64,000 nucleotides of DNA from a virus (taxonomy: Duplodnaviria; Heunggongvirae; Uroviricota; Caudoviricetes), in IMG/VR virus record IMGVR_UViG_2609460125_000009; one strand, written 5' to 3'. Of the stretch, positions 10,849 to 64,000 are shown piece by piece. Both the position numbers and the translations under genes were made by a program. Numbering within the stretch: position 1 is the stretch's first letter; each line of letters opens with the position of its first letter. Below the pieces are notes generated by a model. The model was not told the origin of the DNA. It did no database searches and saw only the letters and a list, made by a program, of their open reading frames with translations.

Positions 10849-10902
10849 AGTAAAAATGAGTTACTTTTACTCTTGATCCTATAAGAATCTATGCCTAATA
10901 TA

Positions 10903-10918
10903 CTGTTTACTTATACAG
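10903..10918. promoter_or_regulatory. LexA-box-like palindrome CTGT-N8-ACAG upstream of the recombinase gene
   Basis: taCTGTttacttatACAGta, 29 bp upstream of ATG 10947. Confidence 0.4.
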
Positions 10919-10946
10919 TACATCGGCGTAACTCGGTGATTGTCAT

Positions 10947-12050
10947 ATGAAAAATAGCTTTGACAGAGCACGCGCTGCGGAGAACACCTCAAAAGAGGCG
11001 ATTGAGTATCTCGAAAGAGCATCTCAAATGCAGGCCGTTATGATCTCCCAGGTCAGCAATGACATGAGATTCTCGGACGCATTCATGTTATTCACTCGCT
11101 TATCTCTGCTGATAACAAGACGTCGGCCAGAGATCGCTGTTCATTGTATTTTGATACATGTTTTGCCGCACATTGCCGATGTAAAAGTAAGTGATATTAA
11201 TAGGTTCATGGTGAACCAACTGGTCAACCCACTAATACTGGATGGCAAAATTGTTATGGGTCGCCGCGTTTTCTCTCTGATGAAGCAGTTCCTCAGCTGG
11301 TGCGCCTTCCAGGGGATGATCGACGTGTCACCGTTAAACGATATGTCACTTAACAAAGTTGCCGGTGGCGCAAAGCCCACACCTCGCGAGCGGAAGCTGA
11401 CCGACGCAGAGGTATGGGTGTTCTGGAATATATGGGACTACTTCAATGTGTGTGCTGGTACAAAATGGGCGGCCAGGCTATGTCTTGTATCCGCAAGACG
11501 ACCTGACGAAGTACTGCGGGCTAAAAAAAGTGAGTTCAATCTTAAGCGTGGGGTTTGGAATCAAGGCAAGAGGAACAAATCTGCCCGTGAGCATTCTCTG
11601 CCTTTAAGCTCATTAATGCGCACTTGTATTGAAGAGTTGTTCGAATATGGTAAAGACAGCCAGTGGCTCGTGCCTTCGAATAAAAAAATCGGGAAAGACC
11701 TTCCTATGTCTAAAGTGGCAATAGCCCAGGCATTACGTCGTATTCTGGAACGACCAGAACTGATGGAGCTTGAGCCATTTACACCCCGAGATTTGCGCCG
11801 TACTGCGCGTAGTTACTTCCCAGCATTAGGCATAAGCCAGGAGGTATCACGTAAAATCATGAACCACAGTCTTGAGGGGATAGATCGGGTCTACGACCGG
11901 CACGATTATATGGACGAGATGCGAGACGCCTTAGAAAGTTTCTCGACGTACATCGCATCAATCGTAGAGCAACCGGATTTAGACGAAATTGACCACAAAT
12001 TTAAGGGAGATCGTCTATCAACAGAGCTTATTCGTGTAAATTTTTCATAG
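10947..12050 (+). CDS. tyrosine site-specific recombinase/integrase
   Basis: C-terminal catalytic domain with R ... HSL ... R ... Y pattern (RDLRRTARSY, NHSLEG, VYDRHDY); no clear RBS so start is uncertain. Confidence 0.75.
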   Translation: MKNSFDRARAAENTSKEAIEYLERASQMQAVMISQVSNDMRFSDAFMLFTRLSLLITRRRPEIAVHCILIHVLPHIADVKVSDINRFMVNQLVNPLILDGKIVMGRRVFSLMKQFLSWCAFQGMIDVSPLNDMSLNKVAGGAKPTPRERKLTDAEVWVFWNIWDYFNVCAGTKWAARLCLVSARRPDEVLRAKKSEFNLKRGVWNQGKRNKSAREHSLPLSSLMRTCIEELFEYGKDSQWLVPSNKKIGKDLPMSKVAIAQALRRILERPELMELEPFTPRDLRRTARSYFPALGISQEVSRKIMNHSLEGIDRVYDRHDYMDEMRDALESFSTYIASIVEQPDLDEIDHKFKGDRLSTELIRVNFS

Positions 12051-20162: not shown

Positions 20163-20435
20163 AAAGAATTATGGCGCTTGTTGAGGAAGTCACTCCTCTT
20201 ACGCACTTTGTTTTGCCATGCCGGCAGTTAGCTTCTGCCTTTGACTATTCATGCGGCAACCCCGCATTTCGCCACAATGGGCAATTCACTTTTATGGAAT
20301 AAACTGGCCGTTGTGTCGATTTAATTAGCATGGCCTTACCATGCTAATTTATTCAACTTGTACAATCCTACAAATCTATCCACTCAGGCTTACACCGTCT
20401 TCGTTATTGTAGAAATGAGGATCATCAGCGTTGAA

Positions 20436-20651
20436 TCAGCTTAGAGCAACGACATTTGCTGCTGCTGGGCCTTTAGCCCCATTCTCGATAGAGAATTCGA
20501 CCTGCTGGCCTTCTTCCAAAGTGCGGAAATTATTACTCTGAATTGCCGAAAAATGTACAAAAACATCTTTACTGCCATCAGCAGGAGAAATAAAGCCAAA
20601 GCCTTTATCAGAGTTAAACCATTTTACTAAACCAGTCATTTTATTAGACAT
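20436..20651 (-). CDS. cold-shock protein, CspA family
   Basis: [21 protein letters not shown] ... VFVHFSAI with RNP1/RNP2-like motifs; start moved to the internal Met matching the CspA N-terminus; ~300-nt leader upstream. Confidence 0.85.
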
Positions 20652-20980
20652 AGATATTACCTTCTTAATTTTGTGAGCCACATAGTGCGGCGAGAATTTG
20701 ATCTGTATAGATTGGGACTTACTTAGGCACTTAAGGAGGAGACTCACGAAGAAGGGAAATCAGAAGATAACACTGAACTGAGACTGCTTTACTAAAACTG
20801 CTTACATAAGGTCTGTCTTGCAAACCAACGATGCTATTAACGCATACCCCTTCTTTTCATGCAACCTTTATTTTTCAAAGATAACTAATTTTTGTCACCA
20901 TTGGTTTAGTAAACGTTAACGAACCAGACGATGCCAGACACCTTTACAGAGAACAGATGCCCGCCAATTGGCGGGCATCA

Positions 20981-24934: not shown

Positions 24935-27274
24935 ATGGCAAAAGGAAAATCCGCACTGGCACTTGCTCTGAAAAAGAAAATCGGTAGCAACGACGAAATT
25001 CAGAAAGTAACTCATTGGATTGACACAGGCTTTCCTCCGTTAAACAAAGCTATTTCCGGTCGTTACGATGGCGGTTTCCCATGTGGTCGTATCGTAGAAG
25101 TATTCGGGCCACCAAGCGCGGGGAAATGTGTTACCGCAGACACCATGCTGCTGACGGAGCGTGGAATGGTAACAGTGAAAGAGTTGTTTGAGATTGAAGG
25201 GTACAAAGCGACATGCACTACTCGCGATGTAGAGCATAACGTTGGACTCATCAATGAAAATGGCGTGATAGAGAAGACCTCACACCTGACATGGAACAAC
25301 CGTCGCAAATTCAAGCGTATTAAGCTGGCATCAGGCGGTTATATCGAGGCTACGTTCCGTCACCCAATCCGTGTGGTTGACGACTTAGGTAATGTCGTCT
25401 GGCGACATGCTGAAAAAATCAGTGTAGGCGACACGATTCCTTCAATGGTTGGCACACATCAATTCGGCGATCAGCACCTGGATGCCAATATCGCAAAACT
25501 GATGGGCTATTTAATTGCTGACGGATACGTGGCCTCTGAAAATTCAGTGAATTTTTCTAACACAGATCCTTTCATCAAGGATGAGTACTACCGCCTCATT
25601 TCGCTGGTATCAGACAAGATGCCAGTTACGAGAAAACATAACGGCTCGGAAGACCATGTGCTGTTTAGCAAAGAGGTGCGTTCGCTGCTTTTTAAAGAAT
25701 ATGGTCTGGAGTATGAGAAAGCTGCTGGCAAGCAGGTTCCGTTGAGTGTGCGTCGCGCCAATAGCGAGGCTCAAATTGCATTCCTTCGCGGCTACTTTGA
25801 GCTGGAATGCCACGTCAATGATGGTCGCTGCATTGAGGTTGTGAGCGCGAGTGGGCTGCTGCTACAGCAAATTCGCCTCATGCTCCTGAATCTGGGGATT
25901 ACGTCAACTATCTCTGAAAAACACGTCGCGGGTTATGAAAATACATATTACCGGCTGTCATTCAGTGGCTCTAATTACGACCTTTTTCTGTCAACGATTG
26001 GTTTCGAATCTCCGGCACGTTTATCAGTGGCAACCAAACGGGACATTGGTTTTGACCGCACTTACTCAGGCTATGTTCCGCACATCAGCGGCTTAGTGAA
26101 ATCACTCTACGAGTCGCTCACCAAGACCACCCGTGAAGACTACGCTCTGGTAGACCACGTTATTGGCCGCGGCGATCGTGTCGGAATAGACAAACTGCGA
26201 GAAATCTATGTCTCCTTCATTGGCAGAAAGAATCGTTTTAACGAGCATCTGTTTGCACAACTGGCAGCGGTAATTGGCTCTAACTTGTTCTACGACGAAG
26301 TCGTGGCTATTGAGGAAGGTGAAGCACCAACGTTCGACGTAGCGATGCCGGAAACACACTCTTTCTGGTCTAACGGGATTATCAGCCACAACACATTCCT
26401 TGCAACAGCAGCGATGATCTCCGCTCAAAAACAAGATGGTCTGGCGGTATTCCTCGATCATGAAAACAGTTTTGACGTTGGCCTGGCTGTAGCCAATGGC
26501 CTGAACGCAGATGAGGATGACGGTCAGTGGGTATACAAGCAGCCAGATACCTTCGAAGACTCTGTAGAGTTGATCGGCACAATACTTAAATTGGTTCGTG
26601 ATGAAGAGCTTATCCCCGAATCAGCACCTATCTGTATCGTGGCTGACTCTCTTGCGTCTATGGTTCCGAACTCCAAAGCCGAGAAGTTCGAAAAGATGGC
26701 TGAAGGCACAGCCAAAGACAAAGATCAGCTAAACATGAACGACAATACGGCACTGGCTCGTGCGACGAGTGCGAACTTCCCTACTCTGGCTTTGTGGGCA
26801 CGCAAATACAACGCCTGCATCATCTTCTTGAATCAGGTTCGCACAAAAATCGGTGTAATGTTTGGCGACCCTACTACGTCGCCAGGTGGAGATTCACCGA
26901 AGTTCTACGCTTCTGTACGTATCCGTCTTGGTGCATCGGTGATGAAGGATGGTAAAGAGAAGATCGGCCAGGACGTAGGCGCAGAATGCATCAAAAACAA
27001 AGTTGCACCACCGTATGGCAAATGCACCTGGAAATTCTACTTCGATCCTACTCGTGGCCTCGACGTTATCGAGTCGCTCGTCGAGTACATGCTGGAAGAA
27101 GGATACCTGCCAAAGAACGCCAGCGGTCGAGTAGAAATTGGTGACAAGAAATACACCAAATCACAGATCGTCGAGATGTATCGGGAGAAGCCACTAGCTG
27201 AAATCATTGCGGCTTTACAGGCAATCGACGACCGGAGATCAAAAGACAATCCCACCGAGTCAGTAGAAGAGTAA
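24935..27274 (+). CDS. RecA-family recombinase interrupted by an intein
   Basis: Extein: GPPSAGK|TFLATAAM P-loop and FLNQVRTKIGVMFGDPTTSPGGDSPKFYASVR, closely matching the RecA core; 422-aa insertion between K64 and T. Confidence 0.85.
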   Translation: MAKGKSALALALKKKIGSNDEIQKVTHWIDTGFPPLNKAISGRYDGGFPCGRIVEVFGPPSAGKCVTADTMLLTERGMVTVKELFEIEGYKATCTTRDVEHNVGLINENGVIEKTSHLTWNNRRKFKRIKLASGGYIEATFRHPIRVVDDLGNVVWRHAEKISVGDTIPSMVGTHQFGDQHLDANIAKLMGYLIADGYVASENSVNFSNTDPFIKDEYYRLISLVSDKMPVTRKHNGSEDHVLFSKEVRSLLFKEYGLEYEKAAGKQVPLSVRRANSEAQIAFLRGYFELECHVNDGRCIEVVSASGLLLQQIRLMLLNLGITSTISEKHVAGYENTYYRLSFSGSNYDLFLSTIGFESPARLSVATKRDIGFDRTYSGYVPHISGLVKSLYESLTKTTREDYALVDHVIGRGDRVGIDKLREIYVSFIGRKNRFNEHLFAQLAAVIGSNLFYDEVVAIEEGEAPTFDVAMPETHSFWSNGIISHNTFLATAAMISAQKQDGLAVFLDHENSFDVGLAVANGLNADEDDGQWVYKQPDTFEDSVELIGTILKLVRDEELIPESAPICIVADSLASMVPNSKAEKFEKMAEGTAKDKDQLNMNDNTALARATSANFPTLALWARKYNACIIFLNQVRTKIGVMFGDPTTSPGGDSPKFYASVRIRLGASVMKDGKEKIGQDVGAECIKNKVAPPYGKCTWKFYFDPTRGLDVIESLVEYMLEEGYLPKNASGRVEIGDKKYTKSQIVEMYREKPLAEIIAALQAIDDRRSKDNPTESVEE
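25127..26392 (+). mobile_element. intein with LAGLIDADG homing-endonuclease domain inside the RecA P-loop
   Basis: Begins with Cys directly after GPPSAGK, ends ...SHN followed by Thr; internal LAGLIDADG-type motifs MGYLIADGYV and FLRGYFELECHV. Confidence 0.75.
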
Positions 27275-60392: not shown

Positions 60393-60835
60393 TCAATACA
60401 ATAAAATGGCCCCATTTGGATGGGGCCGGTAACAACTAGCATTATGGGCGCTGGTTGACGTACTCAATGATCGCTTCGATGATTGCGAACATAGGCGGCA
60501 CGATTTTGAAAAGTAAGTTAAGCACTATAGGCCTCACTTAGTTTTATCGCACCTAGCTGCAAATACCTTTGAGCTTGCCTTTGCAGTTGCAATATCTGTA
60601 GTCGCCAGATACTTACGGCACGATTTCGAGTTAAGGTAAGGTTTTAGAGTCACCAAAAACCTGGACTTAAATCTTCTTTGAGAACAACGATGTTTGGTAA
60701 ATGGTCATTATTACCTAGCATGACGGCTCAACGTTTCTTGATGAATCCAGTACATTCGGTTAATCTTAGCTCAGTCGCCAGATACTTATGGCTCAGGAAC
60801 AGAGGCGCAAACTCTGTTTCCTTTTAAAAAGCCCA

Positions 60836-60869
60836 GCCTAGTCAACTGGGCTTTTTTAATGTCCGTTTT
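60836..60869. terminator. rho-independent terminator (bidirectional shape)
   Basis: aaaaagcccag-cctagtcaa-ctgggcttttttaa. Confidence 0.6.
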
Positions 60870-61154
60870 TAACCAAATGTACCCACAATACCGCAACATC
60901 AGTGTCTTGCGAATTAAGATAGGATTTATAGAGACTATGTGCAAGTGCATAACTTTGTGGATAACTCGTAAAGGAAAAAGTGGTTTCCGCGGACATTAGT
61001 TCAGACAAGGAGTCTGGGAAAGTCAATGGGAAGTAAAAATTTGTTAAAAATAACGTTTGTTGGAATTGTATATATTTATGCCTTTCAATAGTTAGCATCT
61101 TATTAACATCTTTTTTAAGAGATAGAGTTCAAAAATATATAGCTTCAACATATA

Positions 61155-61170
61155 CTGTATGCATATACAG
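61155..61170. promoter_or_regulatory. LexA (SOS) box
   Basis: taCTGTatgcatatACAGca, perfect CTGT-N8-ACAG with AT-rich centre, ~20 bp upstream of the UmuD'-like gene. Confidence 0.7.
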
Positions 61171-61188
61171 CATTAAGAGGCGAGTATT

Positions 61189-61578
61189 ATGGGCTTCCCT
61201 TCTCCTGCGGCGGATTATGCTGAGAGCCGTATTTCTCTTGATCAGCAGATAATTAGACATCCTTCAGCGACCTACTTCATGAGGGCGGCTGATAGTCATC
61301 ATCGTGAGGGAATATTGCAGGGTGCATTGCTGGTGGTCGATTCCTCACTGACTCCTGTTGATGGATCTCTTCTTGTATGTGCTCTGGATGGGGAATATCG
61401 CGTAAAAAGATACCGGAAGTATCCACGTCAGCATCTGGAGGATTTAAGAACTGGTAAGAAGGAAGCATTGCCAAAGGATGATGATGGATGCACGGGCAGC
61501 AATGCCGTGTTTGGTGTGATCACTCACATTATCAACGACGCAAGAAGTGGCGAGTTTGATGATTGTCCTGTGATGTAG
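61189..61578 (+). CDS. UmuD'-like protein (pre-processed UmuD homolog, HumD-like)
   Basis: Begins MGFPSPAADY, i.e. at the position where UmuD is cleaved to UmuD' (..C/GFPSPAADY); retains the Ser (DS) and Lys (RVKR) region; SOS box upstream. Confidence 0.8.
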   Translation: MGFPSPAADYAESRISLDQQIIRHPSATYFMRAADSHHREGILQGALLVVDSSLTPVDGSLLVCALDGEYRVKRYRKYPRQHLEDLRTGKKEALPKDDDGCTGSNAVFGVITHIINDARSGEFDDCPVM

Positions 61579-61590
61579 GAGAACTGTTTA

Positions 61591-61616
61591 GGTGGTGCAT
61601 TGCACCACCTTTTTAT
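61591..61616 (+). terminator. hairpin terminator between the umuD'-like gene and mrp
   Basis: ggtggtg-cattg-caccacc then tttttat. Confidence 0.55.
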
Positions 61617-62716
61617 CACACTGCGCGGAATGCGATTTCGCCAGGTATTACTTCACCTTGCCAATACATTTGGGCAGCAACGCGATCTGCGAGGTCACGA
61701 TAAATAGCCGTAAATTCGCTATCTGGACGACTAATAACGGTTGGTGTTCCGTTATCCAGATCTTCACGAAGAGAGATATGAAGTGGCATTTGGCCTAACA
61801 ACTGCGTGTTGTATTTCTCGGCCAGTTTCTGTGCGCCACCGGTGCCAAAAATTGGCTCGTGATGACCGCAGTTACTGCAAATATGCACACTCATGTTTTC
61901 GACGATACCTAGTACCGGCACTTCGACTTTTTCGAACATCACAATGCCTTTCTTCGCATCGATCAGCGCGATGTCTTGCGGCGTAGTTACCACAACCGCA
62001 CCAGTTACAGGAATGTTCTGCGCCAGCGTCAATTGAATATCACCAGTGCCCGGCGGCATATCGAGAACGAGATAGTCCAGATCAGGCCACAGTGTTTCCT
62101 GCAACATCTGCATCAGCGCCTTGCTGGCCATCGGTCCACGCCACACCATTGCATTGTCGTCGGTGACCAGATAACCAATAGAGTTGGTTGCCAGGCCATG
62201 AGACATGATAGGTGCCATGTGAGTACCGTCCGGTGAGGTTGGACGTTGGTTTTCCGCGCCCAGCATGGTTGGAATTGATGGACCATAGATATCGGCATCC
62301 AAAATACCAACTTTCGCACCTTCAGCAGCCAAAGCCAGTGCCAAGTTTACTGCTGTGGACGATTTGCCTACACCGCCCTTGCCTGAGCTTACGGCGATAA
62401 TATTCTTAACACCATTAATGCCTGGTTGGTTTTTGACGCGCTTAAGCGTGGCAATGTTGTACGACAGCTTCCAGTCAATAGCCTTTGCGCCAGTGATACG
62501 GAGCAGATCACCACTACATTGCTCTTTCAGGTCTTCAAAAGGCTTATTCCACACGAAAGGCATGATTAGTTCGACATGCAGTGTGTCATCCATCAACGCA
62601 ACATGGTGTAACGCTTTAAGCGTAGTCAGGTTGTGTTTCAGGGTTGGGTGCTGAAAATTAGCCAGCGTACCGGCTACCATTGCTCTCAGGGCATCCGGCG
62701 ATTTGGACTCGCTCAT
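61616..62716 (-). CDS. mrp: Fe-S cluster carrier ATPase Mrp/ApbC
   Basis: Near-identical to E. coli Mrp over its length (SSGKGGVGKSSTAVNLALALA ... CSNCGHHEPIFG). Confidence 0.95.
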   Translation of the reverse strand: MSESKSPDALRAMVAGTLANFQHPTLKHNLTTLKALHHVALMDDTLHVELIMPFVWNKPFEDLKEQCSGDLLRITGAKAIDWKLSYNIATLKRVKNQPGINGVKNIIAVSSGKGGVGKSSTAVNLALALAAEGAKVGILDADIYGPSIPTMLGAENQRPTSPDGTHMAPIMSHGLATNSIGYLVTDDNAMVWRGPMASKALMQMLQETLWPDLDYLVLDMPPGTGDIQLTLAQNIPVTGAVVVTTPQDIALIDAKKGIVMFEKVEVPVLGIVENMSVHICSNCGHHEPIFGTGGAQKLAEKYNTQLLGQMPLHISLREDLDNGTPTVISRPDSEFTAIYRDLADRVAAQMYWQGEVIPGEIAFRAV

Positions 62717-62873: not shown

Positions 62874-64000
62874 ATGACCCAAGTCGCGAAGAAAATTCTG
62901 GTGACGTGCGCGCTGCCGTACGCTAACGGCTCAATCCACCTCGGCCATATGCTGGAGCACATCCAGGCTGATGTCTGGGTTCGTTACCAGCGAATGCGCG
63001 GCCACGAGGTTAATTTCATCTGTGCCGACGATGCCCACGGTACGCCGATCATGCTGAAAGCACAGCAACTTGGTATCACACCGGAGCAGATGATTGGCGA
63101 AATGAGTCAGGAACACCAGACTGATTTCGCAGGCTTTAACATCAGCTATGACAACTATCACTCGACGCACAGCGAAGAGAACCGTCAGTTGTCTGAGCTT
63201 ATCTATACTCGCCTGAAAGAGAACGGTTTTATTAAAAATCGCACTATCTCTCAGTTGTACGACCCGGAAAAAGGCATGTTCCTGCCGGATCGTTTTGTGA
63301 AAGGCACCTGCCCGAAATGTAAAGCGCCAGATCAATACGGCGATAACTGTGAAGTTTGCGGCGCGACCTACAGCCCGACTGAACTGATCGAGCCGAAATC
63401 GGTGGTTTCTGGTGCTACCCCGGTAATGCGTGATTCTGAACACTTCTTCTTTGATCTGCCCTCTTTCAGCGAAATGTTGCAGGCATGGACCCGCAGCGGT
63501 GCGTTGCAGGAGCAGGTGGCAAACAAAATGCAGGAGTGGTTTGAATCTGGTCTGCAACAGTGGGATATCTCCCGCGACGCACCTTACTTCGGTTTTGAAA
63601 TTCCGAACGCGCCGGGTAAATATTTCTACGTCTGGCTGGACGCACCGATTGGCTACATGGGTTCCTTCAAGAATCTGTGCGACAAGCGCGGCGACACTAC
63701 CAGCTTCGATGAATACTGGAAGAAAGACTCCACCGCCGAGCTGTACCACTTCATCGGTAAAGATATCGTTTACTTCCACAGCCTGTTCTGGCCTGCCATG
63801 CTGGAAGGCAGCAACTTCCGCAAGCCGACCAACCTGTTTGTTCACGGCTATGTGACGGTGAACGGCGCGAAGATGTCCAAGTCTCGCGGCACCTTTATTA
63901 AAGCCAGCACCTGGTTGAATCATTTTGACGCTGACAGCCTGCGTTACTACTACACTGCGAAACTCTCTTCGCGCATTGATGATATCGATCTCAACCTGGA
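62874..64000 (+). CDS. metG: methionyl-tRNA synthetase (5' portion, runs off the window)
   Basis: [46 protein letters not shown]... HIGH-type motif and E. coli MetG N-terminus. Confidence 0.95.

Follow-up and report, generated by a model that had tools for sequence, protein, structure and literature searches.

A gene at positions 61189-61578 (+) of the window, the 64,000-nt stretch of viral DNA analysed here, encodes a 129-aa protein which, by every criterion testable on its sequence, is a member of the HumD family and lies outside the self-cleaving UmuD family. By sequence, its product as translated is the equivalent of UmuD', and the gene very probably serves as a LexA-repressed, damage-induced source of a UmuD' analogue that joins the UmuC of the host in a Pol V-like polymerase. 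The gene was already known, being a catalogued phage-plasmid copy of P1 humD; the initial annotation had read it correctly, and the reading is not new.

Start and translation signals of humD

The ORF list for the window gave the N-terminus of the protein as MGFPSPAADYAESR, that is, MGFPSPAADY. In the protein alignment G2 paired with Gly25 of E. coli UmuD, the residue with which UmuD' begins, and both the 24-residue N-terminal arm of UmuD and the UmuD-type Cys/Ala-Gly self-cleavage site were missing from the window protein, which begins at Gly. The earlier statement that translation starts at the UmuD' position was exact. An in-frame TAA stop (61174-61176, +), identified by reading the sequence and by script, is located four codons 5' of the ATG at 61189 with no alternative start between the two, which excludes a longer or full-length UmuD form; an upstream in-frame start giving a normal UmuD, which had been named as the outcome that would overturn the reading, was thus looked for and is precluded by this stop. 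The start at the UmuD cleavage position and the stop upstream of it together bear out the description of the product as a pre-processed UmuD' analogue. A Shine-Dalgarno sequence, AAGAGG (61175-61180, +), was read 8 nt 5' of the ATG.

Promoter, LexA box and terminator

The promoter scan returned a promoter-like site for humD at 61128-61156, TTCAAA-17-TATACT, with 9/12 matches; the -35-like hexamer TTCAAA (61128-61133, +) is a consensus match only, and the -10-like hexamer TATACT (61151-61156, +) lies under a predicted LexA (SOS) box, which overlaps it at 61153-61156. The box itself, TACTGTATGCATATACAGCA (61153-61172), had been described as perfect and about 20 bp upstream of the gene. Its CTGT-N8-ACAG core is indeed perfect, while the box as a whole agreed with 17/20 positions of the palindromic consensus TACTGT(AT)4ACAGTA, and it does lie upstream of the humD ATG, at a true gap of 16 nt. 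Two 20-mer LexA boxes with at most three mismatches were found in the 64-kb window as opposed to none in 100 dinucleotide-preserving shuffles; the bare 16-mer core CTGT-N8-ACAG was uninformative alone, with two found and 1.0 expected in the window. The position of the box was common to P1, D6, Cyrano, N15, HK639, yong1 and E. coli umuD, and in a DNA alignment with P1, D6, Cyrano and E. coli umuD it formed a conserved island between promoter flanks that diverge. A predicted box over the promoter, kept in position while its flanks diverge, is what would be expected under the SOS control proposed earlier. P1 humD has been described as LexA-regulated (PMC9603915), and by homology we infer that LexA binds TACTGTATGCATATACAGCA and controls this copy of humD.

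Downstream of the gene the terminator scan called a strong stem-loop at 61590-61610, an intrinsic terminator (61590-61615, +) with a 9-bp stem, AGGTGGTGC/GCACCACCT, followed by a T-run. The humD unit is predicted to be monocistronic, with a sigma-70-type promoter and sealed by this terminator. A scan of the whole window against Rfam produced no match near humD.

Just one further strong LexA box occurs in the window, TACTGTTTACTTATACAGTA (10901-10920, 17/20 consensus positions), located 27 nt 5' of an ORF for a 367-aa tyrosine recombinase (10947-12050, +), just past a promoter-like site, TTGATC-17-TAATAT. This box was conserved in a 115.7-kb relative, which likewise has exactly two such boxes. 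The arrangement suggests an SOS-controlled recombinase on SSU5-type phage-plasmids.

The region upstream of humD is a non-coding stretch of about 0.8 kb. Within it, 60455-60852 (+) contains a promoter-like site (60455-60483) and an intrinsic terminator (60835-60852) with about 370 nt between them and no annotated gene; positions 60586-60685 were 100% identical among four relatives while the neighbouring sequence varied. Rfam gave no match for 60455-60852, and the region may encode a small RNA or a small protein (a 49-aa ORF with a TTG start, 60678-60827). An 80-aa ORF divergent from humD (60856-61098, -) had a full-length match to phrog_28987, a family of unknown function (E=1.5e-39). It was considered as a LexA-controlled partner gene, comparable to lxr in P1 or dinI in phiKO2, and rejected: in phage CMS-2020a a stop codon interrupts the ORF, and in Cyrano it differs by many non-synonymous changes that lie in clusters. 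Probably the ORF is non-coding, having been over-called and then passed on from one phage annotation to the next.

Family membership and sequence relatives

The window protein matched the NCBIfam equivalog NF051876, 'HumD family translesion DNA polymerase', at 219.8 bits (cutoff 120), with residues 1-129 covering model positions 1-129 of 129. With the NCBIfam UmuD model, NF007621, it scored 87 bits, below the cutoff of 110, as compared to 163.3 for E. coli UmuD. It is placed outside the self-cleaving UmuD family because of this score and because it lacks both the arm and the operon with umuC. The Pfam Peptidase_S24 domain (PF00717) was recognised at 37.9 bits (gathering score 23.3), and the UmuD' sequences in the PDB (1umu, 1i4v, 1ay9, 8gmt) matched over the whole domain, the best with E=6.7e-23 (1umu), residue 2 of HumD pairing with residue 1 of the PDB chain or residue 25 of full-length UmuD. 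The RefSeq protein WP_000506720.1 is identical and carries the same name as the equivalog model. An AlphaFold2 model made from a 35-sequence alignment was unusable (pLDDT 44.8, pTM 0.37).

Alignments with UmuD and P1 HumD, proposed as a check of the initial annotation, gave protein identities of 44% to E. coli UmuD from G25 and 92% to P1 HumD, with 91% to D6 and 100% to phage Cyrano. Relative to UmuD, the window HumD gains 4 residues in an insertion and 10 in an extension at the C-terminus. Ser36 and Lys73 aligned with S60 and K97 of UmuD, so the catalytic dyad is kept. Residues 116-129, NDARSGEFDDCPVM, fit the HumD-specific extension ...NDxRxGEFDDCPVM; the tail (residues 117-129, 61537-61575, +) was kept in P1, D6, N15, phiKO2, HK639 and yong1 and was missing from UmuD. 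The dN/dS ratio of humD was 0.046 relative to P1 and 0.064 relative to D6 (dS 0.7-0.84), and this strong purifying selection argues that humD is not a decaying fragment.

The likeness to the organisation of P1 humD noted in the initial annotation holds, as the two belong to the same gene family. The P1 protein is also 129 aa long, begins with MGFPSPAADY, retains both dyad residues and shares the C-terminal tail, and the P1 gene likewise has a LexA box, 36-39 nt before its ATG, no umuC and a phage-plasmid as its carrier. That carrier is P1 itself, while the window belongs to a siphovirus phage-plasmid of the SSU5/pECOH89 type. In P1 the gene is flanked by the divergent lxr upstream and by phd-doc downstream, in place of the non-coding stretch and the convergent apbC of the window, and nucleotide identity, with homology from the ATG on, is only 85.5%. 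The window humD differs from the P1 paradigm only in its vehicle and its neighbours.

The other HumD family members N15 gp26, phiKO2 gp23, HK639 and D6 shared the N-terminal truncation, the LexA box, the monocistronic arrangement with a terminator and an EFDDCPVM-type tail. N15, phiKO2 and HK639 differ in being only 64-72% identical to the window HumD and in having Thr in place of the catalytic Ser, with the Lys also replaced in HK639, whereas the window HumD keeps both residues. All seven relatives compared (P1, D6, Cyrano, N15 gp26, phiKO2 gp23, HK639 and Hafnia phage yong1) start with M/V-GFPSPA and have a LexA-type box, CTG-N10-CAG, 34-64 nt before the start; in none of them was a umuC homologue annotated beside the gene. 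In the phiKO2 record a LexA site was annotated by the depositors 5' of the homologue. From these sequences the combination of truncated start, LexA box and missing umuC appears to be a trait of the family.

E. coli UmuD/UmuD' (PDB 1UMU, 1AY9, 1I4V, 8GMT) resembles the window HumD in the S24 peptidase fold sequence, in the positions of the Ser/Lys dyad and in having a LexA box at an equal distance from the start. In contrast to HumD, UmuD begins as a 139-aa precursor, cleaves itself at Cys24-Gly25 on RecA* and is co-transcribed with umuC, and it has neither the insertion nor the extension described above. The pairs MucA-MucB, ImpA-ImpB, RumA-RumB and SamA-SamB are similar in that they include S24 accessory subunits of Y-family polymerases which are SOS-linked and lie on mobile elements. 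Unlike the window HumD, MucA, ImpA, RumA and SamA are full-length and self-cleaving, and each shares an operon with a polymerase gene of its own.

Missing polymerase partner

The statement that no umuC/dinB-like partner follows the gene was supported by the sequence downstream, where the terminator is succeeded by the convergent apbC and no polymerase gene is present. A tblastn search with E. coli UmuC found no homologue in the 64-kb window (best E=2.6) or in the collinear 115.7-kb relative, on which no UmuC/DinB or other Y-family polymerase is annotated. Only 64 kb of the element are in the window, and for the rest of it the absence of umuC is inferred from relatives. Among complete E. coli genomes umuC was found in 5423/5426, so that a partner polymerase is essentially always available in an E. 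coli host.

Carrier element and distribution

The window aligned with a 115,685-bp circular E. coli plasmid (NZ_JBWDPU010000001.1) in 15 collinear blocks of 82-99% identity, the 11 longest of which were 96-99% identical. That plasmid is annotated with RepB, ParB, terminase, portal, capsid, tape-measure and tail genes, as well as with dnaE, primase, helicase, ligase, nrdAB, thyA, dfrA51, recA and tRNAs. The sequence identifies the host element as an SSU5/pECOH89-type siphovirus phage-plasmid of E. coli; it is neither P1 nor a chromosome. DNA resembling humD was present in 765/5426 complete E. coli genomes, and 691/804 places were on plasmids. Copies of at least 95% identity were located on plasmids of about 100-115 kb, and copies of 80-90% identity on P1-sized plasmids of about 90-100 kb. 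The gene is accessory and mobile.

At the end of the window lie apbC (mrp, 61616-62716, -) and metG (62874-64000, +), the latter running off the window. The two form a second, captured and diverged copy of adjacent chromosomal core genes of E. coli K-12, with 87-88% nucleotide identity to K-12 and, at the protein level, 94.8% for ApbC and 98.7% for MetRS. Homology of the block to K-12 begins at 61620, outside humD and just past the terminator, and in one relative it stops at the metG stop codon. The block was kept in Cyrano, PhiR41_1 and pG749_2, and the humD-apbC-metG arrangement was also found in phage Cyrano and phage CMS-2020a. In the literature checked, no description of humD, apbC or metG on SSU5-type elements was found.

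The promoter region of humD (61144-61188) was mosaic among SSU5-type elements. In PhiR41_1 (2345-2501) and one CMS-2020a record the upstream region resembles that of P1 and contains another LexA box, TACTGTACAGATAAACAGTA; their similarity to the window begins at the humD ATG, while D6 and RCS47 match the window sequence from about 61144. The mosaic promoter region and the breakpoint at the ATG point to exchange of a humD cassette between P1-type and SSU5-type phage-plasmids.

Two further features of the element were recorded. A RecA homologue (24935-27274, +) is 779 aa long as opposed to about 357 aa in a related plasmid, and its Walker A motif is split by an in-frame insertion of about 1.27 kb (GPPSAGK|C...SHN|T). 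The insertion holds the LAGLIDADG-like motifs LMGYLIADGY and LRGYFELECH and so resembles a homing-endonuclease intein. At 20411-20829 (-), within a segment in which the window and the 115.7-kb relative differ, Rfam matched the cspA thermoregulator over its full length (RF01766, 185.7 bits compared to 78), which implies that the phage-plasmid has a cold-shock gene of the cspA kind.

Catalytic dyad and C-terminal tail across the family

A survey was undertaken on the 150 best representatives at 50% identity, aligned with UmuD, of which 29 were classed as N-truncated and 59 as full-length; these classes depend on one MAFFT alignment, and the representatives include fragments and possibly mis-called starts. 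The catalytic Ser was kept in 5/29 N-truncated and 53/59 full-length representatives (Fisher p 2e-11) and the catalytic Lys in 9/29 and 55/59, respectively (Fisher p 2e-9). Loss of the dyad in N-truncated homologues would be expected if they no longer need self-cleavage. The window HumD, in which Ser36 and Lys73 are kept, might also cleave host UmuD in trans. An EFDDxP-type C-terminal tail occurred in 11 of the 29 N-truncated representatives and in none of the 59 full-length ones (Fisher p 1e-6). The decay of the dyad and a tail exclusive to truncated forms may be new at the family level.

Among the 120 closest homologues of the window HumD the tail was almost invariant, with 81 ending in EFDDCPVM. 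SSB proteins carry at their extreme C-terminus an acidic-hydrophobic tip peptide of the type D-F-D-D-D-I-P-F-COOH, by which SSB partner proteins are bound. The end of the window HumD (EFDDCPVM, residues 122-129) bears a post hoc resemblance to that of K-12 SSB (DFDDDIPF), and some survey representatives end in EFDDTPF or EFHDNLPF. The HumD tail could conceivably mimic the SSB tip, either docking HumD and UmuC on the sites of SSB partners or competing with SSB, an idea that we regard as doubtful. If true, such mimicry would open to the UmuD' analogues of phages a way of being recruited that is not available to cellular Pol V.

Proposed function and alternative explanations

By analogy with umuDC and P1 humD, the box suggests that the humD unit would be repressed by host LexA in undamaged cells and de-repressed when DNA damage leads to RecA*-driven cleavage of LexA. 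The product is UmuD' from its first residue, with no arm or cleavage site, and so would need no RecA*-mediated self-cleavage. Given the identity to P1 HumD, it would be expected to dimerise and to join the chromosomal UmuC of the host and RecA-ATP in a Pol V-like translesion polymerase; homology makes cooperation with host UmuC the most likely mode of action. UmuC has been described as reaching the cytosol only once UmuD'2C has formed, about 45 min after SOS induction (PMC6375631). A pre-cleaved HumD would skip the slow conversion of UmuD to UmuD' and with it this delay of about 45 min in Pol V. The likely benefit would be that lesions in the DNA of phage-plasmid and host are bypassed sooner during the SOS response, and the cost would be mutagenesis.

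HumD could instead act mainly as a modulator or decoy which binds RecA* filaments, forms heterodimers with host UmuD or occupies UmuC, and so tunes the host SOS response, the UmuD2C checkpoint or RecA-dependent prophage induction in favour of the element, with mutagenesis as a side effect. The conserved acidic tail, confined in the survey to truncated representatives, and the partial loss of the dyad suggest an additional interaction, and the element encodes a RecA homologue of its own. For good complementation P1 HumD reportedly has to be supplied from a high-copy plasmid, and its native expression is said to be poor or weak, so that bulk mutagenesis may not be what it does physiologically; the protein is also said to dimerise and to bind UmuC and RecA filaments. 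The UmuD' core, however, is under strong purifying selection. P1 humD was found to be non-essential for lytic growth (PMC10695390), a point in favour of the modulator, whereas the title of McLenigan 1999, as cited elsewhere, and a statement in PMC7092418 report that the P1 protein, so close to the one studied here, facilitates SOS mutagenesis and can substitute for UmuD', that is, acts as UmuD'. A role that is mainly modulatory is thus considered unlikely, and the UmuD' analogue that works with host UmuC is preferred.

The two readings in which humD is not a functional phage-plasmid gene have next to no probability. A full-length umuD with a missed start, or a dead umuDC remnant that has lost its 5' end and umuC, would agree with the absence of an adjoining umuC and with the existence of umuD fragments on small plasmids (for instance 1-115 matches annotated 'S24 family peptidase'), but this is refuted by the TAA four codons upstream, by the gene's own Shine-Dalgarno sequence, promoter and LexA box, by the GFPSP start after the initiator that is common to eight phage or phage-plasmid lineages, by a dN/dS of about 0.05 at a dS of about 0.8, and by the full-length match to the curated 129-position model NF051876. 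That humD might be a chromosomal core gene of the host lineage, the other outcome named as fatal to the initial annotation, is a thought prompted by apbC and metG, which are adjacent core genes in E. coli K-12 and its neighbours here. It is equally far-fetched and is refuted by the collinearity of the window, at 95-99%, with a circular plasmid encoding replication, partition and virion genes, by the accessory and mostly plasmid-borne distribution of humD in spite of these neighbours, and by the nature of apbC-metG as a diverged, captured copy whose homology to K-12 starts beyond the gene.

Significance

The window humD is a further copy of an accessory gene that is already characterised and named in databases; it matters little in itself, and nothing new follows from it, because it is a catalogued family member on an SSU5-type phage-plasmid. 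Its presence on both P1-type and SSU5-type phage-plasmids, which are unrelated lineages, shows that the gene has travelled as a compact SOS cassette complete in itself. In about 14% of the E. coli genomes with a complete sequence such a ready-made UmuD' is encoded, and it could bring forward error-prone synthesis once DNA is damaged. This would have a bearing on stress-induced mutagenesis and on the evolution of resistance in strains with these elements, on which dfrA51 and sometimes CTX-M-15 are also found. At the level of the family, dyad decay together with a tail found only in truncated forms would offer a small new lead on how solo UmuD' analogues work.
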